Source of the DNA: a virus
Taxonomy: Duplodnaviria > Heunggongvirae > Uroviricota > Caudoviricetes
DNA length: 16,039 nucleotides
Direction: 5' to 3' (one strand)
IMG/VR virus record: IMGVR_UViG_2681813230_000004
The notes under the pieces were generated by a model. The model was given only the letters and a program-made list of their open reading frames with translations, ran no database searches and was not told where the DNA came from. A program made the translations under genes and the position numbers. Every line of letters starts with the position of its first letter. Positions within the stretch are counted from its first letter, which is position 1. Below, piece by piece: positions 1 through 16,039 of the stretch.

Positions 1-210
1 ATGACGGATGGCTGGCCGCTGTATGAATCCCGCCTGAAGGGAAAGCTGCACGTTATCAGCAAGCGTTACACTCAGCGCATTGAGCGACATAATCTGAATC
101 TGAGACAACATCTGGCAAGGCTGGGACGGAAGTTACTGTCGTTCTCAAAATCGGTGGAGCTGCATGACAAAGTCATCGGGCATTATCTGAACATAAAACA
201 CTATCAGTAA
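1..210 (+). CDS. insB: IS1 transposase InsB, C-terminal fragment (5' truncated by window edge)
   Basis: The 69-aa translation matches the InsB C-terminal region as I recall it. Confidence 0.85.
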
Positions 211-225
211 GTTGGAGTCATTACC
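1..225 (+). mobile_element. IS1 right end (partial; the window starts inside the element)
   Basis: ORF 1..210 matches the C-terminus of IS1 InsB (...[15 protein letters not shown]). The sequence ATCAGTAAGTTGGAGTCATTACC at 203..225 matches the 23-bp IS1 terminal inverted repeat from memory with one mismatch, and the insB stop lies inside it, as in IS1. Confidence 0.85.
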
Positions 226-279
226 GATTTTGGGGAGTAATATTTTGGTAAGGCTTCAAGGTTCATGCTCGTTCTCCAC

Positions 280-1329
280 TTACGCCAGTACGCCAATTGC
301 CAGCGCGCGATCGATAAAACGAAATATCAGCTCCAGTTGGGAGCCATACTTATCTTCAAATGCCACTGTATCCGTATGCAGCTCGTTGTGATGCTTTCTG
401 CACAAAGGCAACACAAAGAGATCATGTGCTTTTGTTCCCATTCCGCCCTGCCCGTGACCAATCAGATGATGCGGATCGTCGGCTGGCATACCGCAGCAAA
501 CACACGGCTGTGTCTTAACCCAACGTGTGTATTTCTCCTTAACCCAGCGGCGACGTTTAGGCAGCTTCATGAAAGATTCCGGAGACTCTGGATCAACGGT
601 GATGCTTACCACCGTCTTTTCCTGTGGTGATTTTTGTTGCTGGTGGGCGTAAGGCAACGGTGCAAGATTTTTTGTGCGTTGTTTCAATATGCTGGTGGCG
701 GTCTGCTCTCCCGGTACGATGTCGCTTTCGCGGTACACCGAGCAGATTTTTTCCGCTGGTAATCCCAGCGAACGACGCGATACAGCCTCAGGTAGTGCAT
801 CCACCACCTGATTGCAGACCGCCCACCAGGATAATTCAGCCAAAGATAATTCCCGCTCCTGCGTACCGCTTATTGCGTGACGGATGACGTCAATCACCCA
901 TGCTGTCAGATTTTGTTGAGCAAGCAGCTCCAGTGATTCCGATGTCTGGTCACGCAGTTGGTTGTCGCAGTGCCAGCACAACACCATTGCGCCGGTACCA
1001 TAACGGTGAATGACTGTTTCAGTGTGATGGTAATCGCCATTAGGCCACTGGCAGGATGTAACATGACGTAATAGCCAGTCGGACAATGCGCCAACGCCGC
1101 CAGCAGCACGAATCACCCGTTCGTTACTAAAAAACGGCAGCAATGTTTTGTCTTCCGCCAGCGGCTGGCGAACGGCAGGAACGACTCCGGATGGCAGATT
1201 ACGCATGCTTTTTGGTTCCGGTTCCACCAGCACTCGAGGATTATGAAATATCTGTATGGATTCACGGCCCGGCTTAAGGACCACCAGCCCAAGCTCAGGC
1301 ACCAGAACAGGTCTAAGTAATACCCGCAC
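280..1329 (-). CDS. ydfU: YdfU-like prophage protein with C-terminal DUF968/HNH-like Cys-His motif
   Basis: Long minus-strand ORF. The C-terminal segment CVCCGMPADDPHHLIGHGQGG...LPLCRKHHNELH is a Cys/His HNH-like motif (DUF968/Ref-like). Start placed at GTG 1329 (GGAGG 4 nt upstream, about 349 aa, the length I recall for K-12 YdfU); the ORF track's extended start at 1368 or ATG 1206 are alternatives. Confidence 0.6.
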   Translation of the reverse strand: MRVLLRPVLVPELGLVVLKPGRESIQIFHNPRVLVEPEPKSMRNLPSGVVPAVRQPLAEDKTLLPFFSNERVIRAAGGVGALSDWLLRHVTSCQWPNGDYHHTETVIHRYGTGAMVLCWHCDNQLRDQTSESLELLAQQNLTAWVIDVIRHAISGTQERELSLAELSWWAVCNQVVDALPEAVSRRSLGLPAEKICSVYRESDIVPGEQTATSILKQRTKNLAPLPYAHQQQKSPQEKTVVSITVDPESPESFMKLPKRRRWVKEKYTRWVKTQPCVCCGMPADDPHHLIGHGQGGMGTKAHDLFVLPLCRKHHNELHTDTVAFEDKYGSQLELIFRFIDRALAIGVLA

Positions 1330-1330
1330 G

Positions 1331-1609
1331 TTACCTCCAGATCCGTTGCTGGAAAGTGCGGGACGCACGTGGTGGGCGTTCGGAATAAGGCAGCCTGACA
1401 GAGATTATCCAGTGCCGATAGTCGAGACTGAGAGCTTTCTTAACCTCGAACCCGCGCCTGCGGTAAGAATGAATCAGCCATTCGGCCTGTTCTGCAGTGC
1501 ATGGAGGGTGCTGGAACCATTCAGACTTGAATGCGTGAGAATACCGCCCGTGCGTGCAGGCAAGAACGGGCGAATTATCAGAATTGTAATATTTTGCGTT
1601 GCGTGCCAT
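1331..1609 (-). CDS. hypothetical 92-aa protein
   Basis: ORF with GGAG about 8 nt upstream of its ATG. Its stop lies 1 nt before the ydfU GTG, suggesting coupling. No family recognised. Confidence 0.35.
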   Translation of the reverse strand: MARNAKYYNSDNSPVLACTHGRYSHAFKSEWFQHPPCTAEQAEWLIHSYRRRGFEVKKALSLDYRHWIISVRLPYSERPPRASRTFQQRIWR

Positions 1610-1675
1610 CGGTTTTCTCCGGTGGCACGGTGTTACTCAGCGGGAGTTCAGCCCCGCGCAAGATTGTAGATGAGT

Positions 1676-1927
1676 TTATTCTCCTGAAAAAGCAGAAAAG
1701 CCAGCTTTTATTCCGATCTCTTTCAATGCCTGTAATGAAGTGACAAACTCACCTTCGCGCAAGATAAATCCGTCCGTGACCCGAGCATCCACAAAATTAA
1801 TTAACGCAGCCCCATTCTTTCGCAAACACATAATGCGGTAATGACTAACAAGATTTCCATTTTCAACGCACACAGCATAGAGGCCATCTTCACAAAAAAT
1901 TTTACGCAGTTCTTCGATGTTCATCAT
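1676..1927 (-). CDS. rem: Rem (Qin prophage small protein, 83 aa)
   Basis: 83-aa ORF in the position of rem between ydfU and hokD; length matches K-12 Rem. Confidence 0.7.
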   Translation of the reverse strand: MMNIEELRKIFCEDGLYAVCVENGNLVSHYRIMCLRKNGAALINFVDARVTDGFILREGEFVTSLQALKEIGIKAGFSAFSGE

Positions 1928-2042
1928 CAGAATCCTTCCGGATAATTAGCTCTCCCCTTTAAGGGACCATCCCTCTTATCCCTGCGCGCTACTTAAGTAT
2001 TTTTGATTCTATTCCGGCACCGTCCAGAACTTCAAACGCGTT

Positions 2043-2076
2043 GAAAATAAAAACAAAAACCCGCCGAAGCGGGTTA
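2043..2076 (-). terminator. Rho-independent terminator of the relB-relE-hokD operon
   Basis: On the minus strand, an AACCCGC-TTCG-GCGGGTT hairpin (2058..2075) is followed by a T-rich tract (TTTTTGTTTTTATTTTC), about 70 nt downstream of the hokD stop. Confidence 0.6.
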
Positions 2077-2143
2077 AGTGCGGGTGCGTTGAGGATGCCT
2101 GCCACATCAGAGGTGGCGAGGGATTTCTCCCCCGCCGGGTCTC

Positions 2144-2299
2144 TTACTCCTCAGGTTCGTAAGCTGTGAAGACAGCGACCTCCGTCTGGCCGGTTCGGAT
2201 TCGTACCTCGCAGAGGTCTTTCCTCGTTACCAGTGCCGTCACTATGACGGTTAAACAGATGACGATCAGGGCGATTAACATCGCCTTTTGCTGCTTCAT
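2144..2299 (-). CDS. hokD: HokD (RelF) type I toxin, 51 aa
   Basis: Hand translation of the reverse complement gives MKQQKAMLIALIVICLTVIVTALVTRKDLCEVRIRTGQTEVAVFTAYEPEE, a Hok-family sequence. Below the ORF-track size cut-off. Confidence 0.85.
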   Translation of the reverse strand: MKQQKAMLIALIVICLTVIVTALVTRKDLCEVRIRTGQTEVAVFTAYEPEE

Positions 2300-2370
2300 A
2301 GCCTGCTTCTCCTGTCAACGCAAAGCAGAAGTGTCACCTTCGGTGCGAAACAGAGATGTCATGCTTTGGT

Positions 2371-2658
2371 TCAGAGAATGCGTTTGACCGCCTCGCTATA
2401 TACTTCCGAGCGTTCTCTTTTCCCAACAGAAATCACGAAAACGACAACTTTCTCGTCTATAACCTGGTATACAAGGCGATAGCCTGAAGACCGGAGCTTA
2501 ATCTTGTAACAATCAGGCATACCACGGAGCTTGTTTGCTTCAATCCGGGGTGACTCAAGTACTTCAACCAGCTTCTTTTTCAACTGTTCACGTACCGTCG
2601 AGCCCAGCTTTCGCCATTCCTTTAGTGCCCGCTCGTCAAAATCCAGAAAATACGCCAT
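2371..2658 (-). CDS. relE: RelE mRNA-interferase toxin (95 aa)
   Basis: Translation MAYFLDFDERALKEWRKLGSTVREQ...VISVGKRERSEVYSEAVKRIL matches RelE. Confidence 0.9.
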   Translation of the reverse strand: MAYFLDFDERALKEWRKLGSTVREQLKKKLVEVLESPRIEANKLRGMPDCYKIKLRSSGYRLVYQVIDEKVVVFVISVGKRERSEVYSEAVKRIL

Positions 2659-2897
2659 CAGAGTTCATCCAGCGTCACACGTACTGGCTTAGGATTACGA
2701 AGCCGTTCTTTCACTATCTCCACAAGTTCAGCATCTTCATCACTCAGGAGTGTCTGTTTGAACGGCAAGCGTTCATTGTCAGCGATATACTCGAGCATGA
2801 GACGAAGCGCTTCAGAAGGAGTTACACCCATTTTTTCAAGCGCGGCGTAAGAACGCGCTTTAAGTTCATCGTCAATACGCAGGTTAATGCTACCCAT
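2658..2897 (-). CDS. relB: RelB antitoxin (79 aa)
   Basis: Translation MGSINLRIDDELKARSYA...PKPVRVTLDEL matches RelB. Its stop overlaps the relE start by 1 nt. Confidence 0.9.
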   Translation of the reverse strand: MGSINLRIDDELKARSYAALEKMGVTPSEALRLMLEYIADNERLPFKQTLLSDEDAELVEIVKERLRNPKPVRVTLDEL

Positions 2898-2908
2898 GTC
2901 TTACACCT

Positions 2909-2934
2909 CTTGTAATTACAAATGTCATTACAAG
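2909..2934 (-). promoter_or_regulatory. relBE operator/promoter region (relO-like dyad repeats)
   Basis: CTTGTAATTACAAATGTCATTACAAG lies immediately upstream of relB and contains repeated TTGTAAT/ATTACAA half-sites. RelB/RelE autoregulation at such a site is established. Confidence 0.55.
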
Positions 2935-3227
2935 TATCGCACTACAACATGCTTAGGGCAAGTCACGAAGGAAGTCAGAAAGTAGTCGTAAGAACGGTGA
3001 TCACTGTCCGCTTTGTGCCAGGAGCAGCCATTGCTAAGTCCATCCTGTATTGTGCAGGTCAGCTCGTTTTTAAAGAGTCCGGCCATCATCTTACTGGTAC
3101 AGACACCATATACTTTGTGACGGTCAGGCTACATATGCACAACTCAACTTATTCATCTATTTTTTGCTTTAGCATGTCAGTGTTGCTTTCTCGTCGGCGG
3201 GTGAGCGGTGACCTGACCTGTCGATAA
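2922..3227 (+). CDS. ydfV: YdfV-like hypothetical protein (101 aa)
   Basis: 101-aa ORF between relB and flxA, the position and length of K-12 ydfV. Its start codon lies inside the relO dyad, so coding status is uncertain. Confidence 0.35.
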   Translation: MSLQVSHYNMLRASHEGSQKVVVRTVITVRFVPGAAIAKSILYCAGQLVFKESGHHLTGTDTIYFVTVRLHMHNSTYSSIFCFSMSVLLSRRRVSGDLTCR

Positions 3228-3379
3228 AGGAACGTAGCACGTTTTATGCAACACCCGCATGCGGCAGAAAATTATTGCCGAACGTTTACCCCTGTCAACA
3301 AGCTTTACTTTCTGAGGCGCGCCAGCCCGCGAGGAAAACAATCTGAACATCAAACAATTAATGACACAAGAAATACGAT

Positions 3380-3406
3380 TAAAGATTTTTTTGTGCATGC
3401 CGATAG
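3380..3406 (+). promoter_or_regulatory. sigma-28 (FliA)-type promoter of flxA
   Basis: TAAA (3380..3383), a 15-nt spacer, then GCCGATAG (3399..3406), against the consensus TAAA-N15-GCCGATAA. It sits about 24 nt upstream of the flxA ATG, which is preceded by AGGAG. Confidence 0.6.
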
Positions 3407-3429
3407 TGCTTTTTTAAAAGGAGAAATCT

Positions 3430-3762
3430 ATGTCTGTCACAATTCAGGGAAATACCTCAACCGTTATTTCAAACAACTCCGCCCCGGAAGGAACATCAGA
3501 AATAGCCAAAATCACAAGACAAATTCAGGTGCTGACTGAAAAGCTTGGGAAAATCTCATCGGAAGAGGGGATGACGACACAGCAGAAAAAAGAAATGGCT
3601 GCATTGGTACAGAAGCAAATTGAAAGCCTCAGGGCTCAACTGGAGCAGTTGTTAAGGCAGCAGGCAGAGAAAAAGAATAAAGACGCGACAGTTCAGCCTG
3701 ATAAAAAAGAAGAGAAAAAAGACGATACAAATACCGCTGGCACCATTGATATTTACGTCTAA
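3430..3762 (+). CDS. flxA: FlxA (FliA-regulated prophage protein, 110 aa)
   Basis: Translation MSVTIQGNTSTVISNNSAPEGTSEIAKITRQIQ...GTIDIYV matches FlxA. Confidence 0.85.
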   Translation: MSVTIQGNTSTVISNNSAPEGTSEIAKITRQIQVLTEKLGKISSEEGMTTQQKKEMAALVQKQIESLRAQLEQLLRQQAEKKNKDATVQPDKKEEKKDDTNTAGTIDIYV

Positions 3763-3776
3763 GTGACAGCCGTATT

Positions 3777-3799
3777 GTGGCCCTCATCGGGCCACTTTT
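3777..3799 (+). terminator. Rho-independent terminator after flxA
   Basis: GTGGCCC-TCATC-GGGCCAC hairpin followed by TTTT, starting 15 nt after the flxA stop. Confidence 0.6.
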
Positions 3800-4198
3800 C
3801 GCCATCAGCCTTTTCTTTAAAGACATATTATCTTTGTATCATTTCTGATAGTTAACATTACAAGATATAAGTAATGGACGCACTCCCAATTAGTCTATTT
3901 AAATCGCCACGAGTTTAACTGACAACCCATGATCAATTATGAATTGCAACTATTTCTGTAGTCACTTTTGTGGGGACAGTCCACAAAACTGCCAACTTCC
4001 GCTTCTTGCTCTTAGCGGACATTAGCATAGGCTATTTACCATAACGCCTCATTACGCGCACCGCCCAGACTGACTCAGCGCGTTTCTGGCATATCCCCGG
4101 TAAAACAAGTAACAAACCACCCGAAAATGAACACCAGAAACGCGACTTAAGAATCTACCCTATGAATGGATATGCACTCAACCGAATCGATCTTGGTT

Positions 4199-5540
4199 TC
4201 AATCTTTTTTATCGGGATCAGGCTTCTTTTTAGGTAACTTCGGGGGCTTAACTTGCTGATGACTTTGCGTTCGGCGCGTAAGCCAGGGATGGTCAGCTTT
4301 AGGTTTAACATAGTATTTTGAGCGTAAATCAATACGGGCATTATCCACTCGTTCATGGACACTCTTTTCATCATCCAGTGGTATAGGCTCCGGGCCATCA
4401 ACATACTTTTCCCAGCCCAGCGCTTTCCCGTCATACAGAACGTTAATTTCACCGTCAAAGTTCTCGCATACAGTAACAACCGAATGCCTAAGTCGATATC
4501 CCCGGCCCTCACTGCGTACCTGAAACGCACTGCTTTTGTACTGGAAAGTGAGATTTTTAGACAGAACGCGCTTCGCCTGTAGGCTGAAGATATAACCCAG
4601 TTCCTCTTCAGAATGGTGCACATCAAGATGAGCATTATCAGTAGTACGAGGCGACGTAGCGAACCGGTTGTTATAGGCTTCAATAAAGGTCGGCAACCAT
4701 GCATTTGCTGTTTCAATATCACTGATATTCTGAAGCCGCATTTCTTTGACCAGCCTGTCCTGTAGTGTCTGATTGGCGCGCTCTACCCGCCCTTTTGCCT
4801 GCGGGCTGTTGGCATGGATTGGCTCGATGCCCAGTGTCTTTATCGCACGAGTGAACTGGGTCAGCTCACCTTCCCGCTCTGGGTTATTTACCCTGAATAT
4901 ACTGTGTCTATCAGAGTAGAGAGCGAGCGGTACGCCATGATCATTAAGGTAACCCCGGAGGGTTTCCATGTAAGCCCGGGTTGTTTCAGCAGGCACAAAA
5001 CGCAACGCCATCAACGCACTGGTGGCATCATCAATGAAAACGATCAGTGTACATCTGGGGCCTCGATTTTCAAACCAGTCATGAGGTGAGCCATCAATCT
5101 GGATCAGTTCACCGTAAGATGGTCGTCGCATGCGGCGTTGATATATACGGGCAATTTTACGACGGCGTTCACGCCATACCCCCCTCTTCTATCATCCACT
5201 TTCTGAGAGTTTCAACGGATAAAGATAAACCGTGTATCTCGCGCAATTTTTCGCACGCAAACGTAGGTCCAAAATCAGCGTAACGGCCTTTGAGGAGTGA
5301 AATTACTGTTGCTCTGAATTCAGTAGAAAAGGAATTATTAGGACGCTTTCCACGTCGGTGGGAAACCAGACCAGAAGGCCCTTCATTTCTATACCGTTGC
5401 ACCAGACGTTTAACCTGCCGAATAGAAATGCCAATGCGTGCCGCAGCTTGTTCCTGAGTAATATGTCGATTAATTGACTCCTGAATAATCTGAAGTCGGT
5501 GGAGTTCCTTATGACTCATCGTAACAGTTTCTTTGGTCAT
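4199..5540 (-). pseudogene. rve (DDE integrase-core) transposase-like gene, IS481-like, split into a 123-aa HTH part (5169..5540) and a 310-aa catalytic part (4199..5131)
   Basis: The N-terminal ORF has an HTH-like segment (ITQEQAAARIGISIRQVKRLVQRY). The C-terminal ORF has integrase-core signatures (LYSDRHSIF; PQAKGRVERANQTLQDRL). Both are on the minus strand in frames offset by +1, and the offset sits at a G6 run (plus-strand C6 at 5179..5184). Removing one G would give a single ORF of about 440 aa. Confidence 0.65.
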
Positions 5541-5874
5541 GAAAAATCCCCCAGAGAATTGTCTGGGGACATTTTAGAATGGTTCAAAGGGGACATTACA
5601 GCTTGGTGTTAACAATAGCCTGCTTCTCCTTGCCTTTCGGCACGTAAGAGGCTAACCTACATGTGTCTGGCATGAAATTGGCCTCAGATTAATGTTAAGC
5701 GTCTTGCAGGACGCGTAATGTTAACTGGGGCTTTTCTCTACCTGCCGTTGGTGTTCGTGCCCGAGGCAGATAGCCTCAAGCACCCGCAGTCATTCTACTT
5801 AACTAAGATTTCCCCGCAAACCGTTTTTGTCCAGCACAGTAAATATCCAACTAAACCAATGGAGTTCGCTGTAT

Positions 5875-6054
5875 TTACCGCCAGTATTCAATGCACATGA
5901 CCGCCATGAACACCCCTAAAAAAAGGGCATTTATATATCCAAATATTAATATCAAAACATCAACTTTTTCCATATACCTTGCTGTGAAGATGATGGGCAT
6001 ACATGATGCGAACAACCAGAACGCAACAAACAAAAACTGCAATGCGTTTTTCAT
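5875..6054 (-). CDS. hypothetical small membrane protein (59 aa, two predicted hydrophobic helices)
   Basis: ATG at 6054 is preceded by a perfect AGGAGG 4 nt upstream. Translation MKNALQFLFVAFWLFASCMPIIFTARYMEKVDVLILIFGYINALFLGVFMAVMCIEYWR is strongly hydrophobic. It lies in a visibly AT-rich stretch. Confidence 0.4.
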   Translation of the reverse strand: MKNALQFLFVAFWLFASCMPIIFTARYMEKVDVLILIFGYINALFLGVFMAVMCIEYWR

Positions 6055-7206
6055 TATTCCTCCTACAATCAATGTGCAATTACATTTAAACACACCTCAA
6101 TTTGGCCGGACATATAAATATCTAAACCAGAAAAAATCACTTACATAGCGTTACAAACTCTTTAGTCTAAAGGTTCATCGTAAAACATTCCCCATACTTA
6201 TCAGTCCGTTCCGCGCCAGGTAGCTCATTGCCTTATCTGGCAACCTGTAATCAGGTTTCCGCTTTTTCAGTTGGCTGGTCGTTTAACCGACATAGTTAAC
6301 CCATTAATCTAGTTGCCGGATGTTGGTGGATTTTCGCGTTTTAGTTGTTCATAAAAGTGCACAGCTTTAACCAATTCTTCTGATGTAACCGGGACTGGTG
6401 AGGCAGTGAATAAGGCCTGAATTTGATAGTTCGGCCTGTCGTTACAATCCTCTTTTTTCGGTACATATTTCCAGTCACCAGACCACTACTTCCCCTGAAA
6501 GTCCGTAACGCCTTTTTTCACGTAGCGATATCGCCATGTCACTGGTTTTGCTTGCCCCGCCGTTTCATGCCCTTCCTGATAATTAATCTCGCTCATTCAT
6601 CGCCCCACTCATCACAATATGCTTCGACCGGAGTTTTTCCCGCTTCATAGTCATCACGCTAGGATTCGACATCAGCAGCACTTCCACCGCGTAACTCACC
6701 ATAGTCCATTAATAGTTCATCCCGCTCTTCAAAACTGATGTTATATTTAGCTGAACAAAAATCAGCCACTTTGTTCTTCCTCATCGTCTTTTATTTCGTG
6801 GTATGAGTAATTGCAGTAGTTAAAGAAAATTTCTTATGCTCCGTCATGAATTTCATCAGGTGTTGCGTCATCGTCCACTTCGAATACATCCTCAAAATCT
6901 CCACCAGCTATTCCCGTTTCAATAATAATTTTGAACTTTCGCATTTCACTACCGCCCTTTCGGGCGGCCTCCTGATGTTCTGAGGGTGCAGAAATCCATC
7001 CGGTTAAGGATTAAGTTTTATTTACAGAACTGAATTTAATTATTCAGATATACGTATCTGTAACCTTACGAATCTACTCACTGGATGCCTCTTTCATAAA
7101 AATAATCCAGTGGGTTTTATCGTTTTTTCCCTGTTCGTTGACAGATAACAGGCTTTCTATCTGTCAGTGCCAGAATCTGGCTTACCGGTATTTGCGTTTC
7201 ATTCCA

Positions 7207-7563
7207 TTAAAAAATCAGAACGCCGTGCGGCCTCAACACCCGAAAAGCTTCTTTAAATCTCTGTCGCAAATCATCACGCCAGGCATCTTTATTCAGCCGT
7301 CCATATTTCTTTCCCATCCAGGCGTTATCACCAACACGCTCAAGATGCGGAGGGTCTAATACAACCATCGAAAAAGATGCGTCTGCAAATGATAATGCAC
7401 GAAAATCTGCGATAATGTCAGGGCTGATAATCAAGCGTCTCCCATTGCGTAATGTGTATCCTTCTTTTCTGATATCGCTAAATATCGCCCGTTCGTCAGA
7501 CTTATCGAACCAGAACATGCGGCTGCCACAGCACATATCAAGAATGGTTGCCGGTGCACTCAC
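7207..7563 (-). CDS. SAM-dependent methyltransferase core, probably a remnant (118 aa)
   Basis: Motif I-like ILDMCCGS near the N-terminus and an amino-MTase motif IV-like VVLDPPH about 60 aa later. Too short for a complete Rossmann-fold MTase. GTG start; an in-frame stop lies 6 codons upstream. Confidence 0.45.
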   Translation of the reverse strand: MSAPATILDMCCGSRMFWFDKSDERAIFSDIRKEGYTLRNGRRLIISPDIIADFRALSFADASFSMVVLDPPHLERVGDNAWMGKKYGRLNKDAWRDDLRQRFKEAFRVLRPHGVLIF

Positions 7564-7982
7564 TGCGCCACGTCCTGAAAATTACCCTGATAGAAAGCCA
7601 GTATGCGCTGCATAACTTCGCTCTTCCGGCACTCGCGACAGATTATGTTTAGGCGACTGTCGTAGCGACGTATTTCTCCGTCAGGTGATGACCAGATAAG
7701 GTCCGGATCAACCACAGCAGGTTTCTTCACCTTTGCCCTCGAGAGTTTTTTGCGGGCGTTTTGCCAGTCCTTACGCGCCTGTTCAGAGGGGAATAACCCG
7801 TAGCCGGAGTTGTATACATCGCCACTGGCTACCAGCTCTCTGGCAAGAACGCTCATCAGATATCTAGTCGCACCTGTTTTAGCTTCCAGTTGCCGTAACG
7901 TCTCACGGCCGCTCTGGCGCACGAGTTCCACCACCTGCCATTTAATTTTTTCCCGCTCTTCTTGTGTAAAAACTTTTGCCAC
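7560..7982 (-). CDS. hypothetical phage protein (140 aa), possible winged-helix segment
   Basis: ORF directly downstream of the replication gene on the same strand. Its stop overlaps the MTase-like ORF start by 2 nt. No family recognised. Confidence 0.45.
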   Translation of the reverse strand: MAKVFTQEEREKIKWQVVELVRQSGRETLRQLEAKTGATRYLMSVLARELVASGDVYNSGYGLFPSEQARKDWQNARKKLSRAKVKKPAVVDPDLIWSSPDGEIRRYDSRLNIICRECRKSEVMQRILAFYQGNFQDVAQ

Positions 7983-8022
7983 AAGTCCCCCTTAAAATTA
8001 CCTCATGACCTGAAATCAACAC

Positions 8023-8988: not shown

Positions 8989-9490
8989 AATTCCATCCAG
9001 CTTTTTGTTGGTATTGCTGTCGATACGCAAGCTTGAAAGCAATTGCTTTTTCTATAAGTTCGTCAGTTTCACGATCCACTACGGCAGGATCAGCAAAAAG
9101 CAGTCCGGACTCCACCACATCGCCATATTCTTTGTTTAACCCGGCGATCATGCACGTGATGCTTTTTCCGTCAGTAATTTCACGATACAACCTGAAATCA
9201 CTAATCCGGATAGCCTCCATAATCGCAGGCACTAGCGCCGTGAACTTTTCACGCTTATCCCTGGTGTCGATAGCCTTCCAGCGTTCGAATATCTTCACTC
9301 GATTAACACCAAGCGCTCGCTGATCAACCGCGCCACCTTCATCTGTGACACGCTGAACATCGATGTTCGGGCGCTCTTTCAAAGCCCAGAATGCTTCAGT
9401 GATTAATATCGTCGCCTGCTCCTGTGTCATTCCTGGTCGACATATCCAGGCATCCAGAGCCTCACGAGCCTGTTCAGGAGTGATTTTCAT
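8969..9490 (-). CDS. hypothetical phage early protein (173 aa), in the cII/YdaT position
   Basis: ORF immediately downstream of the dicC-like gene and upstream of the replication gene, same strand. No motif recognised. Confidence 0.45.
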   Translation of the reverse strand: MKITPEQAREALDAWICRPGMTQEQATILITEAFWALKERPNIDVQRVTDEGGAVDQRALGVNRVKIFERWKAIDTRDKREKFTALVPAIMEAIRISDFRLYREITDGKSITCMIAGLNKEYGDVVESGLLFADPAVVDRETDELIEKAIAFKLAYRQQYQQKAGWNYEPSFC

Positions 9491-9701
9491 TGTTCAACCG
9501 CCCCGCCCGCTTCGTCTTACGATATTCATCATAAACTTTGGGATCATACTGAAGCTCCCCGCCAGATGCCTCCTGTAGACGCATCGCGCGACCTTCAGGA
9601 ACCAGTATCCCCCAAGCAGCAACACTTGCCAGCCTCACTCCTGCGGCATTGGCAAGCTTTGTTTTGCTGCCAAAAAAAGTAATTGCGTCAACTTTAAGCA
9701 T
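9474..9701 (-). CDS. dicC: DicC-like Cro-type regulator
   Basis: Small ORF divergent from dicA. The C-terminal sequence ...VPEGRAMRLQEASGGELQYDPKVYDEYRK... resembles DicC/YdaS-type Cro proteins. ATG at 9701 is preceded by GAGGGGG; the ORF-track start at 9704 is a TTG. Confidence 0.7.
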   Translation of the reverse strand: MLKVDAITFFGSKTKLANAAGVRLASVAAWGILVPEGRAMRLQEASGGELQYDPKVYDEYRKTKRAGRLNNENHS

Positions 9702-9714
9702 CAAATCCCCCTCT

Positions 9715-9732
9715 TGTTAGACTTTTCTAACA
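9715..9732. promoter_or_regulatory. operator, perfect 18-bp dyad TGTTAGACTTTTCTAACA, in the dicC-dicA intergenic region
   Basis: Perfect palindrome overlapping the dicC ribosome-binding region. A related half-site, TTAGAATTACCTAAC, lies at 9766..9780 just upstream of the dicA ATG. Confidence 0.55.
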
Positions 9733-9781
9733 TTATTGTGCGCGGGATACCTAAGTCAAGAAAAATTAGAATTACCTAACT

Positions 9782-10189
9782 ATGGATACAAGAACCCTGG
9801 GCCAGCGAGTTCTGGCGCGACGAAAAGAATTACGCTTAACACAACGAGAAGCCGCGCGCCTCGCTGGAGTTGCTCACGTCACAATTTCACAATGGGAAAG
9901 AGACGAAACCCAGCCAGTCGGAAAACGATTGTTTGCTTTAGCGGATGCTCTGAAGTGCTCACCTACATGGCTAATGTTTGGTGACGAAGACAAGGCACCA
10001 GTGCCTGCACAAGAACTTCATGTGGAAACAGAGCTAACTCCCAACCACAAAGAATTGATCGAATTATTCGATGCTCTTCCATCTTCCGAGCAGGAAGCCT
10101 TGCTGTCTGAAATGCGCGCAAGAGTAGAAAACTTCAACAAACTCTTCGAAGAAATGCTTAAAGCGCGTAAAAATAAATCAATAAAATAA
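9782..10189 (+). CDS. dicA: DicA-family repressor (HTH_XRE, 135 aa)
   Basis: The segment LTQREAARLAGVAHVTISQWER is an XRE-type HTH. Length, divergent arrangement with dicC, and position upstream of ydfA match DicA. Confidence 0.8.
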   Translation: MDTRTLGQRVLARRKELRLTQREAARLAGVAHVTISQWERDETQPVGKRLFALADALKCSPTWLMFGDEDKAPVPAQELHVETELTPNHKELIELFDALPSSEQEALLSEMRARVENFNKLFEEMLKARKNKSIK

Positions 10190-10225
10190 CATTCTTTTCA
10201 AGTGATTAGTTGCGCCCACCCTTTT

Positions 10226-10279
10226 TGTTAGATCAATCTAACAAAAAACACTTGCCTCTCATGTTAGGTTATTCTAAAT
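10226..10279. promoter_or_regulatory. two further operators of the same family in the dicB-operon promoter region
   Basis: TGTTAGATCAATCTAACA (10226..10243, perfect dyad) and TGTTAGGTTATTCTAAAT (10262..10279, imperfect), between the dicA stop and ydfA. Confidence 0.5.
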
Positions 10280-10357
10280 TATTTTCCATCAAGACACCGC
10301 ACGGTGTTCTCAGCAAACAGTTCCGCTACCCCGGCGTTAAGGGGAAATGAGGTCAGC

Positions 10358-10513
10358 ATGGATACTATCGATCTTGGCAACAACGAATCTCTGGTGTACG
10401 GCGTGTTTCCAAACCAGGACGGCACGTTCACCGCAATGACGTATACCAAAAGCAAAACGTTTAAAACCGAATCTGGAGCGCGTCGCTGGCTGGAAAGAAA
10501 TTCAGGTGGGTGA
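10358..10513 (+). CDS. ydfA: YdfA (51 aa)
   Basis: MDTIDLGNNESLVYGVFPNQDGTFTAMTYTKSKTFKTESGARRWLERNSGG from the internal ATG at 10358, which has GAGGT upstream. The ORF track lists a longer upstream start. Confidence 0.8.
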   Translation: MDTIDLGNNESLVYGVFPNQDGTFTAMTYTKSKTFKTESGARRWLERNSGG

Positions 10514-10514
10514 T

Positions 10515-10643
10515 ATGGATTTCGACACAATCATGGAAAAGGCTTACGAAGAATACTTCGAAGGCCTTGCCGAAGGCGAAGAAGCTCTCAGCTTCAGCGA
10601 ATTTAAACAGGCGCTTTCCAGTTCGGCAAAATCTAACGGCTGA
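10515..10643 (+). CDS. ydfB: YdfB (42 aa)
   Basis: Hand translation MDFDTIMEKAYEEYFEGLAEGEEALSFSEFKQALSSSAKSNG. It starts 1 nt after the ydfA stop and is below the ORF-track cut-off. Confidence 0.7.
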   Translation: MDFDTIMEKAYEEYFEGLAEGEEALSFSEFKQALSSSAKSNG

Positions 10644-10672
10644 TAAGCGAAACAGCACCGCAAGGAATCAGT

Positions 10673-10891
10673 ATGCAGAAACGAGAACCCGTTATCATCG
10701 CGCCAGACTATACCGATGATGAACTTTATGAGTGGATGCACCAGAAAATTAATGCAGCGCAGGATCTGAAATGGGCTAATGAAGCCAGGGCTAAGCAGGC
10801 TGAAAATCTGTTCTCTCTGGAGCAGGATATCACCAATCTGGAAAAAGCAGCGGCATTAAGCATTGCCAGAATGATTACATACCCGCGTTAA
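10673..10891 (+). CDS. ydfC: YdfC (72 aa)
   Basis: Translation MQKREPVIIAPDYTDDELYEWMHQKINAAQDLKWANEARAKQ... matches YdfC. Confidence 0.8.
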   Translation: MQKREPVIIAPDYTDDELYEWMHQKINAAQDLKWANEARAKQAENLFSLEQDITNLEKAAALSIARMITYPR

Positions 10892-11231
10892 TAGCTAACC
10901 AACGAAGCTAAGGTTGGTAATTAAGGAGTTCTCCACGGGTGAGGTGGAGTGCGTGCGCCGGACACGGGTGAGCATCCGGCACTGACAGTTTACTGAAAGG
11001 ATATTTCCCTGAAAAGTCAGACCATAACGCGAAAGCGCACGGCGAGGTAGCTGGTTCATAGATAGCCTGTCGTTAAATTTTCGTCGACCGTGCGCTTCCG
11101 GTTGTGGCAACCCGCGAAATGGCGCGGCGGTAAGTATGGCGGGGTTATTCCTTCCCCGTTGAGGACACCGGGTTGTCAGGTTGACCATACGCTTAAGTGA
11201 CAACCCCGCTGCAACGCCCTCTGTTATCAAT

Positions 11232-11289
11232 TTTCTGGTGACGTTTGGCGGTATCAGTTTTACTCCGTGACTGCTCTGCCGCCCTTTTT
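11232..11289 (+). ncRNA. dicF: DicF small regulatory RNA (ftsZ-targeting sRNA)
   Basis: TTTCTGGTGACGTTTGGCGGTATCAGTTTTACTCCGTGACTGCTCTGCCGCCC followed by TTTTT matches the DicF sequence from memory, in the expected position between ydfC and dicB. Confidence 0.8.
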
Positions 11290-11458
11290 AAAGTGAATTT
11301 TGTGATGTGGTGAATGCGGCTGAGCGCACGCGGAACAGTTAAAACCAAAAACAGTGTTATGGGTGGATTCTCTGTATCCGGCGTTAATTGTTAACTGGTT
11401 AACGTCACCTGGAGGCACCAGGCACCGCATCACAAAACTCATTGTTGAGGGCGCGATA

Positions 11459-11647
11459 ATGAAAACGTTATTACCAAACGTTAATACGTCTGAAGGTTGT
11501 TTTGAAATTGGTGTCACTATCAGTAACCCTGTATTTACTGAAGATGCCATTAACAAGAGAAAACAAGAACGGGAGCTATTAAATAAAATATGCATTGTTT
11601 CAATGCTGGCTCGTTTACGTCTGATGCCAAAAGGATGTGCACAATGA
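11459..11647 (+). CDS. dicB: DicB cell-division inhibitor (62 aa)
   Basis: MKTLLPNVNTSEGCFEIGVTISNPVFTEDAINKRKQERELLNKICIVSMLARLRLMPKGCAQ from the internal ATG at 11459. Confidence 0.85.
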   Translation: MKTLLPNVNTSEGCFEIGVTISNPVFTEDAINKRKQERELLNKICIVSMLARLRLMPKGCAQ

Positions 11648-11835
11648 ATTCAGCATTTGCGCTTGTTCTGACAGTTTTTCTTGTTTCCGGAGTGCCAGTT
11701 GATATTGCAGTCAGTGTTCACAGGACAATGCAGGAGTGTATGACTGCAGCAACCGAACAGAAAATTCCCGGTAACTGTTACCCGGTCGATAAAGTTATTC
11801 ACCAGGATAATATCGAAATCCCGGCAGGTCTTTAA
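11644..11835 (+). CDS. ydfD: YdfD (63 aa)
   Basis: MNSAFALVLTVFLVSGVPVDIAVSVHRTMQECMTAATEQKIPGNCYPVDKVIHQDNIEIPAGL. Its start overlaps the dicB stop (ATGA). Confidence 0.8.
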   Translation: MNSAFALVLTVFLVSGVPVDIAVSVHRTMQECMTAATEQKIPGNCYPVDKVIHQDNIEIPAGL

Positions 11836-11928
11836 AACAGTTCCGTAATAAATATCCGGTTTCATTCTTATATGCCAGCAATGGCAGGGATTTGTTCATC
11901 CTTAAATCTGTCATGAGGTTAAAACAAA

Positions 11929-14400
11929 ATGAGTAAAGTCTTTATTTGCGCCGCTATTCCTGACGAACTGGCAACAAGGGAAGAAGGCGCTGTGGCTGTA
12001 GCCACAGCCATTGAAGCTGGCGACGAACGCCGTGCTCGAGCAAAATTTCACTGGCAATTCCTGGAACATTATCCGGCTGCTCAGGACTGCGCTTATAAAT
12101 TTATTGTCTGCGAGGATAAACCTGGTATACCCCGCCCTGCCCTCGATTCATGGGATGCTGAATATATGCAGGAAAACCGCTGGGATGAGGAGTCTGCTTC
12201 TTTTGTCCCGGTTGAGACTGAATCCGATCCGATGAACGTCACTTTTGACAAGCTGGCCCCTGAAGTACAGAACGCTGTCATGGTTAAGTTCGACACATGT
12301 GAAAACATCACCGTTGATATGGTTATTAGCGCACAGGAATTGTTGCAGGAAGACATGGCAACATTCAACGGACATATCGTTGAAGCGTTGATGAAAATGC
12401 CAGAAGTTAACGCCATGTATCCGGAGCTTAAGTTGCACGCCATTGGGTGGGTTAAGCATAAATGTATTCCTGGTGCTAAATGGCCCGAAATTCAGGCAGA
12501 GATGCGCATCTGGAAAAAACGTCGCGAAGGTGAACGCAAGGAAACCGGAAAATACACGTCTGTTGTTGATCTCGCCCGCGCCAGAGCCAATCAACAGTAC
12601 ACTGAAAATTCAACAGGAAAAATCAGCCCGGTCATTGCTGCCATTCATCGCGAATACAAGCAGACATGGAAAACACTGGATGACGAACTGGCCTACGCTC
12701 TCTGGCCTGGTGATGTGGATGCCGGAAACATTGACGGCAGCATCCATCGCTGGGCAAAAAATGAAGTTATCGACAACGACCGCGAAGACTGGAAGCGTAT
12801 CTCGGCATCAATACGCAAACAGCCTGATGCCCTTCGCTACGACCGCCAAACTATTTTTGGCCTTGTCCGTGAGCGTCCGATCGACATTCACAAAGATCCC
12901 GTAGCACTGAACAAATATATCTGCGAATACCTGACGACAAAGGGCGTGTTTGAGAATGAAGAAACAGACCTGGGCACTGTTGATGTTCTCAAGTCATCAG
13001 AAACACAAACTGATGCAGTGGAAACTGAGGTATCTGATATCCCAAAAAATGAAACCGCACCGGAAGCTGAACCATCTGTAGAGCGTGAGGGGCCGTTCTA
13101 TTTCCTCTTCGCAGATAAGGACGGAGAAAAATACGGTCGCGCAAACAAACTTTCTGGTCTGGATAAGGCACTGGCTGCTGGCGCCACTGAAATCACAAAA
13201 GAAGAATATTTTGCCCGAAAAAATGGCACATACACGGGCTTACCGCAAAATGTAGATACCGCTGAAGATTCAGAACAACCAGAGCCGATAAAAGTTACCG
13301 CTGACGAAGTAAACAAAATTATGCAGGCAGCCAATATCAGCCAGCCTGACGCCGATAAGTTGCTTGCTGCATCACGTGGTGAATTTGTTGAAGGGATTAG
13401 TGACCCGAATGATCCGAAATGGGTTAAGGGGATCCAGACCCGCGATTCTGTGAACCAGAACCAGCATGAATCGGAACGGAACTACCAAAAAGCGGAACAA
13501 AACAGCCCAAATGCGTTACAAAACGAGCCAGAAACGAAACAGCCTGAATCAGTGGCGCAACAGGAAGTGGAAAAAGTCTGCACCGCCTGCGGTCAGACCG
13601 GCGGCGGCAACTGCCCTGATTGTGGCGCGGTGATGGGCGACGCAACATACCAAGAAACATTCGATGAAGAGTATCAGGTTGAAGTTCAGGAAGATGATCC
13701 GGAGGAAATGGAAGGCGCTGAACATCCACACAAGGAGAACGCTGGCGGCAATCAGCATCACGATAGCGATAATGAAACTGGCGAGACGGCAGATCACTCA
13801 ATTAAGGTGAACGGTCATCACGAAATCACATCCACCAGCAGGACGTGTGACCATCTAATGATCGACCTTGAAACCATGGGAAAAAATCCTGATGCCCCGA
13901 TCATCTCAATAGGTGCAATATTTTTCGATCCGCAAACCGGAGATATGGGACCGGAATTTAGTAAGACTATCGATCTGGAAACTGCTGGCGGAGTCATTGA
14001 TCGGGACACCATTAAATGGTGGCTTAAGCAATCACGCGAAGCGCAATCGGCCATTATGACCGATGAAATCCCGTTAGATGATGCACTGTTACAATTGCGG
14101 GAATTTATCGACGAAAACTCCGGTGAATTTTTTGTTCAGGTTTGGGGAAATGGAGCCAACTTCGACAACACGATTTTGCGCCGTTCATACGAACGGCAGG
14201 GGATCCCCTGCCCGTGGCGTTACTACAACGATCGCGATGTACGCACAATCGTTGAGCTGGGGAAAGCCATAGACTTCGATGCCAGAACGGCTATTCCATT
14301 CGAAGGTGAGCGCCATAATGCACTTGATGACGCCCGTTACCAGGCAAAATACGTTTCAGTTATCTGGCAAAAACTGATCCCGAGTCAGGCTGATTCTTAA
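11929..14400 (+). CDS. prophage exonuclease (823 aa) with C-terminal DEDDh 3'-5' exonuclease domain; full-length counterpart of the K-12 ydfE fragment by position
   Basis: The C-terminal 180 aa carry the DEDDh motifs: MIDLETMG (D646, E648), WGNGANFDNTIL, and HNALDDARYQ (H796, D801). A CxxC...CxxC cluster sits at about residues 551-563. The central segment DADKLLAASRGEFVEGISDPNDPKWVKGIQTRD resembles RecE (exonuclease VIII) as I recall it. Confidence 0.75.
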   Translation: MSKVFICAAIPDELATREEGAVAVATAIEAGDERRARAKFHWQFLEHYPAAQDCAYKFIVCEDKPGIPRPALDSWDAEYMQENRWDEESASFVPVETESDPMNVTFDKLAPEVQNAVMVKFDTCENITVDMVISAQELLQEDMATFNGHIVEALMKMPEVNAMYPELKLHAIGWVKHKCIPGAKWPEIQAEMRIWKKRREGERKETGKYTSVVDLARARANQQYTENSTGKISPVIAAIHREYKQTWKTLDDELAYALWPGDVDAGNIDGSIHRWAKNEVIDNDREDWKRISASIRKQPDALRYDRQTIFGLVRERPIDIHKDPVALNKYICEYLTTKGVFENEETDLGTVDVLKSSETQTDAVETEVSDIPKNETAPEAEPSVEREGPFYFLFADKDGEKYGRANKLSGLDKALAAGATEITKEEYFARKNGTYTGLPQNVDTAEDSEQPEPIKVTADEVNKIMQAANISQPDADKLLAASRGEFVEGISDPNDPKWVKGIQTRDSVNQNQHESERNYQKAEQNSPNALQNEPETKQPESVAQQEVEKVCTACGQTGGGNCPDCGAVMGDATYQETFDEEYQVEVQEDDPEEMEGAEHPHKENAGGNQHHDSDNETGETADHSIKVNGHHEITSTSRTCDHLMIDLETMGKNPDAPIISIGAIFFDPQTGDMGPEFSKTIDLETAGGVIDRDTIKWWLKQSREAQSAIMTDEIPLDDALLQLREFIDENSGEFFVQVWGNGANFDNTILRRSYERQGIPCPWRYYNDRDVRTIVELGKAIDFDARTAIPFEGERHNALDDARYQAKYVSVIWQKLIPSQADS

Positions 14401-14472
14401 TGTTCAACTGTCGCCGGTTGTGACTGGTATTCTGCAACCGGCGCTCGTCTGATGTAAGAGATAAAGAAATCG

Positions 14473-14724
14473 ATGAGCGAAGTAATCATGATTGTCTCTC
14501 CCGGCAAATGGGTATCCGAAGAGCAGTTAATTGCGCTGAAAGGAATAAAAAAAGGTACGTTAAAAAAGGCCCGGGAAAAATCGTTTATGGAAGGAAGGGA
14601 ATATAAGCATGTCGCTCATGACGGTATGCCATGGGATAACAGTCCATGCTTTTACAACCTGGAAGAAATTGATCGCTGGATTGAGCGCCAGGCATCAGCA
14701 AGACCAAGACGTCATCTTACTTGA
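14473..14724 (+). CDS. xis: excisionase (Xis-like)
   Basis: Small ORF immediately upstream of int. It shares a W...GREY-type motif (WVSEEQL...MEGREYKHVA) with lambda Xis (W...VKDGREY). The start could instead be ATG 14488. Confidence 0.6.
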   Translation: MSEVIMIVSPGKWVSEEQLIALKGIKKGTLKKAREKSFMEGREYKHVAHDGMPWDNSPCFYNLEEIDRWIERQASARPRRHLT

Positions 14725-14743
14725 CTAAAAGCCACACTAACTA

Positions 14744-16039
14744 ATGAGAGAAGTTGAAATGAAATATCCGACAGGCGTGGAAAACCATGGAGGGAAATTA
14801 CGTATCTGGTTTGTTTATAAAGGCGTAAGAGTCAGGGAAAACCTGGGGGTTCCTGACACAGCAAAAAACAGGCGCGTTGCAGGTGAGCTACGCGCCTCTG
14901 TTTGTTACGCAATAAAAACTGGTGTTTTCGACTATGCAAAACAGTTTCCCTCCTCACGCAATCTGGAAAAATTTGGTGAGACTCGACAAGATTTAACCAT
15001 AAAAGAACTGGCTGAAAAATTTCTGGCACTGAAAGAAACTGAAGTCGCAAAAACATCACTCAACACATACCGTGCCGTCATCAAAAATATCCTGAGCATA
15101 ATCGGTGAAAAAAATCTTGCCTCATCGATTAATAAAGAAAAATTACTGGAGGTTCGTAAAGAGCTACTGACTGGATACCAGATCCCCAAAAGTAACTATA
15201 TTGTTACACAACCAGGGAGATCGGCTGTAACTGTAAATAATTACATGACAAATCTTAACGCCGTGTTCCAGTTTGGTGTTGATAACGGTTACCTGGCAGA
15301 TAACCCGTTTAAGGGGATCTCGCCATTAAAGGAATCAAGAACCATTCCGGATCCTCTTTCGCGGGAGGAATTCATCCGTCTTATCGATGCGTGCAGAAAT
15401 CAGCAAGCCAAAAATTTATGGTGTGTTTCTGTTTATACTGGCGTTCGCCCTGGTGAGCTGTGTGCACTTGGATGGGAGGACATAGATCTGAAAAATGGAA
15501 CAATGATGATCAGGAGAAATTTAGCAAAAGACCGTTTCACGGTACCAAAAACACAGGCGGGAACCAATCGGGTCATTCATCTTATTAAGCCAGCAATCGA
15601 CGCTCTCCGGAGTCAGATGACATTAACGAGACTGAGCAAAGAGCATATCATTGATGTTCACCTCAGAGAGTATGGCAGAACAGAAAAACATAAATGCACC
15701 TTTGTTTTTCAACCTGAAGTGTCAGCGAGAGTAAAAAATTATGGTGACCATTTTACCGTTGACTCAATAAGGCAGATGTGGGACGCAGCGATAAAACGTG
15801 CCGGACTCCGCCATCGAAAATCATATCAGTCGAGACATACTTATGCCTGCTGGTCGCTGACAGCTGGTGCTAATCCGGCATTTATAGCAAACCAGATGGG
15901 CCATGCAGATGCGCAAATGGTATTTCAGGTATACGGAAAATGGATGTCTGAAAACAATAATGCACAGGTAGCTTTGTTAAATACACAGTTAAGCGAGTTT
16001 GCCCCAACCATGCCCCATAACGAAGCAATGAAAAATTAA
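14744..16039 (+). CDS. intQ: phage integrase (tyrosine recombinase, lambda Int family)
   Basis: 431-aa ORF ending at the window edge with its stop. C-terminal catalytic signatures are present (...RHTYACWSL...; ...MVFQVYGKW...). Start may be ATG 14759 (MKYPTG...). Confidence 0.85.
   Translation: MREVEMKYPTGVENHGGKLRIWFVYKGVRVRENLGVPDTAKNRRVAGELRASVCYAIKTGVFDYAKQFPSSRNLEKFGETRQDLTIKELAEKFLALKETEVAKTSLNTYRAVIKNILSIIGEKNLASSINKEKLLEVRKELLTGYQIPKSNYIVTQPGRSAVTVNNYMTNLNAVFQFGVDNGYLADNPFKGISPLKESRTIPDPLSREEFIRLIDACRNQQAKNLWCVSVYTGVRPGELCALGWEDIDLKNGTMMIRRNLAKDRFTVPKTQAGTNRVIHLIKPAIDALRSQMTLTRLSKEHIIDVHLREYGRTEKHKCTFVFQPEVSARVKNYGDHFTVDSIRQMWDAAIKRAGLRHRKSYQSRHTYACWSLTAGANPAFIANQMGHADAQMVFQVYGKWMSENNNAQVALLNTQLSEFAPTMPHNEAMKN

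Follow-up and report, generated by a model that had tools for sequence, protein, structure and literature searches.

The DNA analyzed here (IMG/VR record IMGVR_UViG_2681813230_000004; the whole stretch of 16,039 bp is hereafter termed the window) begins inside an IS1 element and stops at the stop codon of an integrase gene. We estimate, with a probability of roughly 85%, that it represents the early/immunity half of a Qin-type lambdoid prophage that is far less eroded than the Qin prophage of Escherichia coli K-12 and that is defective, with its early functions intact. A transposon that carries relBE, lies in the hokD locus of this prophage, and appears to target hok-family genes matters more than the less eroded state of the prophage itself.

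Open reading frames (ORFs) were listed in six frames, and the window was compared by megablast with 5,426 complete E. coli genomes. Positions 226-16039 are 100% identical to several E. coli chromosomes from pig and human commensal strains, e.g., NZ_CP062908.1 from a pig isolate, and at least 80% of the window was found in one place in 419 of the genomes. The annotated gene order in NZ_CP062908.1 is ydfU, a hypothetical gene, rem, hokD, relE, relB, ydfV, flxA, ydfW, a partial IS1202-like transposase gene, a helix-turn-helix (HTH) gene, three pseudogenes, DUF977, a replication gene, a YdaT-family gene, a Cro/CI regulator gene, an HTH repressor gene, ydfA, ydfB, ydfC, dicB, ydfD, and the genes for an exonuclease, an excisionase, and an integrase, the last abutting rspB. 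In that chromosome, the prophage runs on leftward through an intact antiterminator gene, lysis genes, and terminase, portal, capsid, and tail genes. The Qin insertion site, ydfJ beside rspB with an 11-bp core (GAAATCCATAA), was seen in both NZ_CP062908.1 and K-12. The genes are laid out as in lambda. On the plus strand, a DicA-family repressor gene precedes a leftward operon of ydfA-ydfB-ydfC-DicF-dicB-ydfD-exo-xis-int; on the minus strand, cro is followed by a cII-like gene, an O gene that contains the origin, a ren-like gene, a nin-like region, ydfU, and Q. DicA/DicC-type regulators and the DicF-dicB operon are both present in the immunity region of the window.

The content that the window holds beyond K-12 Qin is common in E. 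coli and not unusual. The exo/xis/int stretch is kept (at least 80%) in 2,724 of the complete genomes, i.e., half, the transposase end in 789, and the block of pseudogenes, DUF977, and O in 251. Variation in the size of Qin has already been published, with a range of 11-97 kb across 189 strains (PMC6379469). The sole strain-specific feature of the window is the IS1 element in quuQ.

Predicted excision and replication, and loss of the antiterminator

A first-pass annotation of this DNA had described an apparently intact xis-int pair, a full-length exonuclease where K-12 has ydfE, and a replication gene with iterons, and all of these were recovered. The excisionase gene (14473-14724, plus strand) encodes an uninterrupted protein of 83 aa (Pfam DUF1233, 2e-31; phrog_539) that is absent from K-12 and is 100% identical in the records of three phages, namely, mEp460_ev081 (LR597641.1), HannyBb (PP925841.1), and PhiR42_1 (PV340562.1, from ECOR13). 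The integrase gene (14759-16039, plus strand) is one uninterrupted ORF for a tyrosine integrase of 426 aa with arm-binding and catalytic domains (Pfam Arm-DNA-bind_2, 5.5e-24, and Phage_integrase, 3.8e-18; SAM-like matches were weak, below the gathering score); K-12 intQ lacks residues 1-30. Disrupted catalytic residues would have counted against the first-pass annotation. In an alignment with the Tn1549 Int structure (6EMY), the integrase keeps R230, K264, R359, H382, and Y392 (the nucleophile), with a tyrosine as the first His of HxxR. The window integrase has all its catalytic motifs, YQSRHT among them, in common with those of the three phages, from which it differs at two (mEp460_ev081; 99.5% identical) or four residues (HannyBb and PhiR42_1; 99.1%). 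The exonuclease gene (11929-14400, plus strand) encodes 823 aa, compared with 256 aa retained in K-12. Its product matches phrog_2082 over residues 1-822 of 823, has a C-terminal 3'-5' exonuclease domain (Pfam), and is 88.8-99.0% identical to the phage copies (99.0% to HannyBb).

The replication gene (8023-8988, minus strand) encodes a lambda-O-type initiator that matched phrog_391 ("replication initiation O-like"; 1.4e-91, residues 17-321); no Pfam or NCBIfam family matched, so that the assignment comes from PHROGs only. The protein is 97.8-99.4% identical to O of mEp460_ev081, HannyBb, and PhiR42_1. Within the gene lies an iteron array (8529-8660) with a 23-bp period and five to six copies. 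Exact copies of CATTTTGA occur four times in the 16-kb window, all at 8537-8637 (101 bp) and spaced by 23 or 46 bp. Beside the array are 12-bp repeats (8493-8524), judged A+T-rich by inspection. No P- or DnaC-type loader gene was found directly downstream of O, where a DUF977 or Ren-like (LygF) gene (7560-7982, minus strand; Pfam DUF977, 5e-29; phrog_142), absent from K-12, comes after 40 nt. Because mEp460_ev081 and HannyBb share this arrangement, with DUF977 directly after O and no P-type gene, the lack of a loader gene characterizes the whole group and does not count as a defect. By the standard of that group, the replication module is complete.

The window shares its int-xis-exo, dicB-ydfD, cII-like-O-DUF977, and hok-rem-ydfU-Q modules with the three phages at 88.8-100% protein identity. 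Unlike the window, the deposited phages have an intact Q and late genes, and their immunity repressors are 52-57% identical; HannyBb, which according to its database record came from bird droppings, and mEp460 also have an uninterrupted mok/hok locus without the relBE transposon. PhiR42_1 covers 97% of the window at 98.9% identity and has both the transposon and the pseudogene remnants. The ends of K-12 Qin share the 11-bp core GAAATCCATAA, which lies 37 nt beyond the int stop codon, just outside the window, and the left Qin junction has the form of ydfJ followed by GAAATCCATAA and TTCACAGGTG. In the PhiR42_1 record (1-1064 and 48169-48629), the int arm, GAAATCCATAA, and the opposite prophage arm are joined in what amounts to a rejoined attP. 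The ends of the record overlap by approximately 460 bp, as is typical of a circular or concatemeric assembly. Because the record carries this attP, a near-identical early-half prophage has been deposited in excised form. It is plausible that the prophage in the window may still excise or replicate, and its early modules look competent, judging from the 97.8-100% identity to phage genes and from the excised relative. If the repressor were removed, Int and Xis would be expressed, excision would then take place at the 11-bp core, provided that the other end is still present, and the origin would fire; lysis and virion genes would stay off.

The defect lies at the left end. Positions 1-225 (plus strand) were read as the right end of IS1, i.e., the 3' end of insB and the terminal repeat, ending in GTCATTACC. 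They match IS1 copies genome-wide with a canonical terminus, all non-IS1 matches begin at 226, and one IS1 end is visible. Next to it, 226-266 (minus strand) is the 5' remnant of quuQ/ydfT (13 codons plus 2 nt), and its translation (MNLEALPKYYSPK) is the N-terminus of K-12 YdfT/QuuQ. The gene for the Q antiterminator is cut after codon 13 by IS1; at the equivalent position in NZ_CP062908.1, quuQ is intact. The first-pass annotation had placed the IS1 end at quuQ, 55 bp past ydfU. The position was right, but the gap is 54 bp, as IS1 ends at 225 and the ydfU stop lies at 280. Because IS1 destroys the antiterminator, late gene expression and virions are not expected.

The immunity region encodes a different immunity type. 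The gene for a DicA-family repressor of 135 aa (9782-10189, plus strand; NF007257, 225 bits) has a product with identities of only 57% to K-12 DicA and 52% to repressors of the phages; the mEp460_ev081 repressor also has 135 aa. The gene for a Cro- or DicC-like regulator (9474-9701, minus strand; Pfam P22_Cro, 5e-12) has a product 85.5% identical to K-12 DicC. Over the module as a whole (9474-10189), identity to K-12 and the phages is 52-57% for the repressor and 76-86% for Cro, which looks like a swap of immunity specificity, judging from these sequence comparisons. A palindrome at 9714-9732 (TTGTTAGActtTTCTAACA) resembles TTGTTAGTcataACTAACAA of K-12, with different spacing.

Several points weigh against a prophage with intact early functions. 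The histidine of the HxxR motif of the integrase is a tyrosine (Y356), as in the integrases of the three phages. Only HTH-type domains were detected in the repressor, so RecA-stimulated self-cleavage is not expected, and the proposed induction of the prophage by the SOS response may not work. No publication behind PhiR42_1 was found in the literature search, and its excised or induced status is read from the attP structure alone. HannyBb and mEp460 are taken to be propagating phages on the basis of their database records. Lastly, no att site lies inside the window and the DNA beyond IS1 lies outside it; an IS1-mediated deletion or inversion could abolish excision.

It is possible, though in our view rather unlikely, that such an event has taken place and that the prophage is an inert remnant, fixed in place because its left att site was removed and int-xis has no partner. 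IS1 commonly causes adjacent deletions, the window starts inside IS1 with the DNA to its left outside, and the exact IS1/quuQ junction was found in none of the 5,426 genomes, so no relative shows the sequence beyond IS1; in the four records that cover at least 80% of the junction query, an IS1 copy of 94% identity is inserted close to another Q gene. However, 226-16039 is 100% identical to genomes in which the prophage is complete through the tail genes; IS1 must therefore have arrived very recently, most economically by simple insertion. A fully functional, inducible temperate phage that produces virions is very improbable. The early genes are indeed intact and nearly identical to those of deposited phages, and the deposit of the relative PhiR42_1 is an apparently complete genome of 48.7 kb that includes attP, but in the window the late antiterminator gene is down to 13 codons through IS1, and the late region lies outside. 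We retain the reading of a defective prophage with intact early functions.

Comparison with Qin of K-12 and related prophages

The window was aligned by blastn with MG1655 (NC_000913.3, 1628000-1656000), in which Qin occupies 1632277-1652745. K-12 matches were found for 226-4383 (99.88%), 9211-9794 (86.6%; ydfX/dicC), 10071-12695 (96.0%), and 14880-16039 (98.8%; intQ). Between these, K-12 lacks 4384-9210 (4,827 bp), 9795-10070 matched nothing in K-12, and 12696-14879 (2,184 bp) is replaced in K-12 by a 706-bp IS2E remnant. This whole-locus alignment, set beforehand as a check on the first-pass annotation, bore out content beyond K-12 Qin, and the approximately 5 kb that had been described as retained between flxA and dicC corresponds to the 4,827-bp block. 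The block holds most of the transposase gene, pseudogene remnants, DUF977, the O-type gene, and the 3' 80 codons of a 173-aa ORF. That ORF (8969-9490, minus strand), also listed earlier, belongs to a CII-like or YdaT-family gene (phrog_163, 3e-40; Pfam YdaT_toxin), of which K-12 matches residues 1-93 only.

The methyltransferase remnant reported in the same interval is present as well, as one of several decayed genes (6175-7518, minus strand) called as pseudogenes by PGAP in NZ_CP062908.1. These are a frameshifted hypothetical gene (6175-6596), a DUF7167 gene with an internal stop (6762-6944), and a SAM-methyltransferase remnant (7074-7518), for which a 118-aa ORF (7207-7563) gave weak methyltransferase matches. 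An unannotated 72-aa ORF (5875-6093, minus strand) with long hydrophobic stretches and no Pfam match was also found in the K-12-absent block, between a hok leader and the pseudogenes.

The protein comparison showed what K-12 has kept: residues 1-93 of the 173-aa ORF (ydfX), 1-256 of the exonuclease (ydfE), and 31-426 of the integrase, with no O, DUF977, or Xis. K-12 "ydfW" (b1567; window 4199-4348) is the last 49 codons of the ISNCY transposase ORF, and "ydfX" (b1568; window 9211-9490) corresponds to codons 1-93 of the CII-like/YdaT gene. The derived state is that of K-12, in which a 4.8-kb deletion from inside the transposase gene to inside the cII-like gene, with a 2-nt overlap in the alignment at its junction, made ydfW and ydfX. 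K-12 has also lost the C-terminus of the exonuclease, xis, and the N-terminus of int, and an IS2 remnant is now at that position. The reverse, i.e., that the window strain gained the extra DNA, is extremely improbable: the transposon is a genuine insertion relative to the phages, but K-12 has the left 2,071 bp of this same transposon and only pieces of the flanking genes (ydfW, ydfX, ydfE, and intQ), with no full-length functional gene at its junctions, and the O-DUF977 and exo-xis-int modules occur in the same order in phages.

Overall, the window and K-12 Qin share gene order and have 96-99.9% DNA identity over ydfU-rem-hokD-relBE-ydfV-flxA and ydfA-dicF-dicB-ydfD, with 98.8% for int. They differ in the 4,827 and 2,184 bp retained by the window, in their DicA (57% protein identity) and DicC (85.5%), and in quuQ, of which K-12 has an intact copy without IS1. 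The Qin prophage of E. coli B was considered as a candidate for the window and rejected, because the arrangement in REL606 differs, with a different Q, a truncated ydfU, and IS3 copies. Rac resembles the window in its ydaS-ydaT-ydaU-ydaV-ydaW region, where Cro-like, YdaT/CII-like, O-like, and DUF977-type genes occur in the same order with partial DNA matches of 86%. However, the DnaC-like ydaV of Rac has no equivalent between O and DUF977 in the window.

A relBE transposon in the hokD locus

The transposon is an IS1202-family (ISNCY) element of 3,302 bp (2313-5614, minus strand) with TGT...ACA ends and 28-nt imperfect terminal repeats (TGTCAACGCAAAGCAGAAGTGTCACCTT and TGTTAACACCAAGCTGTAATGTCCCCTT; 21 of 28 positions match). 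It is flanked on both sides by a 15-bp target-site duplication (ATAGCCTGCTTCTCC; 2298-2312 and 5615-5629), a sequence that occurs twice in the window and as a single copy in HannyBb and mEp460_ev081. A 16-bp duplication with GTC ends was considered and set aside, as 15 bp and TGT ends fit the family rule better; since a conserved T follows the site, its boundary is still ambiguous by one base. The passengers are relE (2371-2658, minus strand), relB (2658-2897, minus strand), ydfV (2922-3227, plus strand), and flxA (3430-3762, plus strand). The transposase gene (4199-5540, minus strand) is split by an extra C at 5179 into 5169-5540 and 4199-5131. The first-pass annotation had recorded a transposase-like gene, which is indeed present, but had missed that it belongs to a transposon together with relBE, ydfV, and flxA. 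The intact transposase of a plasmid copy (446 aa; WP_004196353.1) matched NF033594 (the ISNCY_2 model) with 465.5 bits at a cut-off of 250, and the window transposase is 99-100% identical to it over two pieces (120 and 327 residues). The copy in PhiR42_1 has a 27-bp in-frame deletion in the N-terminus of the transposase (window equivalent 5452-5478).

The insertion has severed a hok gene from its own leader. The hokD coding sequence (2144-2299, minus strand; 51 aa) is 100% identical to K-12 HokD, and the left copy of the duplication contains its Shine-Dalgarno sequence and the AT of its start codon. On the other side of the transposon, 5615-5785 (minus strand) is an orphaned hok mRNA leader/sok region that matched Rfam RF01794 at full length (99.8 bits; gathering score 59). 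The final AUG of this model, i.e., the hok start, falls at the transposon end, where similarity stops. The orphan leader is unannotated in the RefSeq relative and is deleted in K-12. HannyBb and mEp460_ev081 are collinear with the window over 226-2313 and then jump straight to 5615-5805, so that hokD is directly continuous with the leader in these phages and separated from it by the 3.3-kb transposon in the window. Both components of the phage locus, the hokD coding sequence and a full-length RF01794 leader, are present in the window; unlike in the phages, hokD lies downstream of relB-relE, away from its mok/sok leader, and in K-12 the leader is gone entirely. The sok match (5614-5785) was also considered as a second, independent hok/sok locus. 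This was rejected because no Hok ORF was found beside the orphan leader and because the phages show it to be the leader of hokD itself.

Members of the IS1202 family have 5'-TGT...ACA-3' ends, imperfect terminal inverted repeats of 24-29 bp, and a transposase of 394-507 aa (Harmer and Hall, 2023; PMC10132070). Some members are "transporter" forms that carry passenger genes, and the ISAjo2 subgroup is site-specific; for the subgroups with long duplications or none, no target is known, and ISEsa1 is listed with no duplication (PMC10132070). The element in the window, for which ISEsa1 is the nearest named member, agrees with the family in its ends, in its imperfect repeats of approximately 28 bp, and in its 446-aa transposase with an HTH-HTH-DDE architecture. 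It differs in duplicating 15-16 bp, in carrying relBE and variable cargo, and in targeting the region of hok translation start.

Copies elsewhere have the same relationship with hok genes. Enterobacter IncF plasmids carry copies with an intact transposase (99.8-99.9% identical), as does a Salmonella IncI plasmid, in which the copy lies beside trbA and differs from that in the window at three positions, one of them being the extra C at 5179 in the window. A variant of 4,155 bp, carrying different cargo, is located on a Citrobacter IncF plasmid near psiA/psiB. In each of these plasmid copies, the relE end abuts a Hok-family coding sequence whose product is 33-41% identical to HokD, and the duplications, 15-16 bp in length, are all different (ATGGCCTTCTTCTCC, ATCATAGCCCCTCCA, and CATGGCCTTCTTCTCC). 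The transposase gene was found on 610 plasmids. A scan with a 26-mer of the right end over one genome per species revealed 16 further carriers in Klebsiella, Enterobacter, Kluyvera, Citrobacter, Pseudocitrobacter, Buttiauxella, Huaxiibacter, Pantoea, Superficieibacter, and Shigella, with elements of 2.6-6.1 kb and duplicated or flanking sequences that differ at seven or more sites. At the window and nine other loci, a full-length RF01794 match (81-128 bits) stops no more than one base from the transposon end. Reconstructed empty sites were found uninterrupted, with 100% identity over 400 nt, in ColIb-P9 and an Enterobacter ludwigii plasmid, and the empty Qin site, with a single copy of the 15-mer and matching flanks, in two phages.

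There are exceptions to this pattern. At locus L023, the same 15-bp site is occupied with the transposase end next to the hok coding sequence, owing to either the opposite orientation or a rearrangement. Neither L012 nor L027 has a right flank that is clearly a hok leader, and L018 resembles a divergent pnd-type leader. Two further observations concern the transposase. On the Klebsiella pneumoniae plasmid pKPC-def (NZ_CP009776.1, 5001-9997), a 100%-identical transposase adjoins the nickel-resistance genes ncrA-ncrB-ncrC-ncrY, and the transposon family may move resistance cargo. A second class of this same gene, with approximately 92% DNA identity, is present on approximately 420 large plasmids of IncHI2 size (e.g., NZ_CP030186.1) in Enterobacter, Klebsiella, Salmonella, and Citrobacter.

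The transposon itself and its hok targeting appear well supported by these comparisons of ends, flanks, and empty sites. For the stricter proposal, namely, that the element inserts site-specifically and nearly always in one orientation just upstream of the start codons of hok-family genes, and that relBE or "relBEF" of K-12 is one such hit, the balance tips only slightly in favor. Neither the relBE transposon nor hok targeting was found described in the literature searched, which included a major review on type II systems (PMC7167474). A citing paper attributes to Ramisetty and Santhosh (2016) the view that relBE integrated into hokD and came from plasmids (as cited in PMC6379469).

Under this proposal, a staggered cut would always fall immediately 3' of a conserved AAGGCAA in the hairpin (GCCNNAAGGCAA) that precedes the hok Shine-Dalgarno sequence. 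The 15 bp duplicated would comprise the Shine-Dalgarno sequence together with the initial bases of the start codon, so the toxin coding sequence would retain a ribosome-binding site and lose its promoter, mok, and the Sok target. It would end up downstream of relB-relE, in agreement with the K-12 gene order relB-relE-hokD, known as the relBEF operon. As speculation, a conserved AGCCTCTT box approximately 25 bp from the insertion point may be recognized by the transposase. K-12 would later have lost the transposase end, hiding the origin of its relBE locus.

Remaining genes and biological implications

The other genes of the window closely resemble those of K-12. To the left of hokD on the minus strand are ydfU (280-1329; DUF968 or HNH-nuclease-like; Pfam DUF968, 6e-77; phrog_96), which is 99.1% identical, and two genes named from the annotation of the relative, namely, a hypothetical gene of 92 aa (1331-1609) and rem (1676-1927), both 100% identical. 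On the plus strand, ydfA, ydfB, and ydfC (10358-10891) were assigned from the relative's annotation and protein comparison, followed by the DicF small RNA (11233-11284; Rfam RF00039, 76.7 bits, gathering score 48), dicB (11459-11647; 100% identical), and ydfD (11644-11835; 96.8%). Two Rfam matches fell below their gathering scores: an STnc100-like match between DicF and dicB (11296-11436, plus strand; 38.4 bits, gathering score 47) and an isrK-like match just downstream of hokD (2054-2135, minus strand; 25.1 bits, gathering score 50). These may be prophage small RNAs or chance matches.

Taken as a prophage, the window shows how unusually eroded K-12 Qin is. The type to which it belongs is common in E. 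coli, and complete phage genomes of this type, with a rejoined attP, have been deposited. The K-12 annotations of ydfW, ydfX, ydfE, and intQ are those of deletion fragments, and a view of "cryptic" prophages based on K-12 understates the content of other strains. Qin elements that bear DicB and DicF may excise and replicate in many isolates.

The copy of the transposon in the window shows both ends, which K-12 does not. In this light, relBE, a model chromosomal type II toxin-antitoxin system, appears as the conserved passenger of a plasmid-borne, hok-homing transposon. From this follows a concrete, testable explanation for the arrival of relBE on the chromosome and for the fact that hokD lacks regulation of its own, and the transposon data suggest how its family picks targets. 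If true, the long-duplication/ISEsa1 branch of the IS1202 family would have its first target in hok, and one addiction module would be traveling by disabling another.

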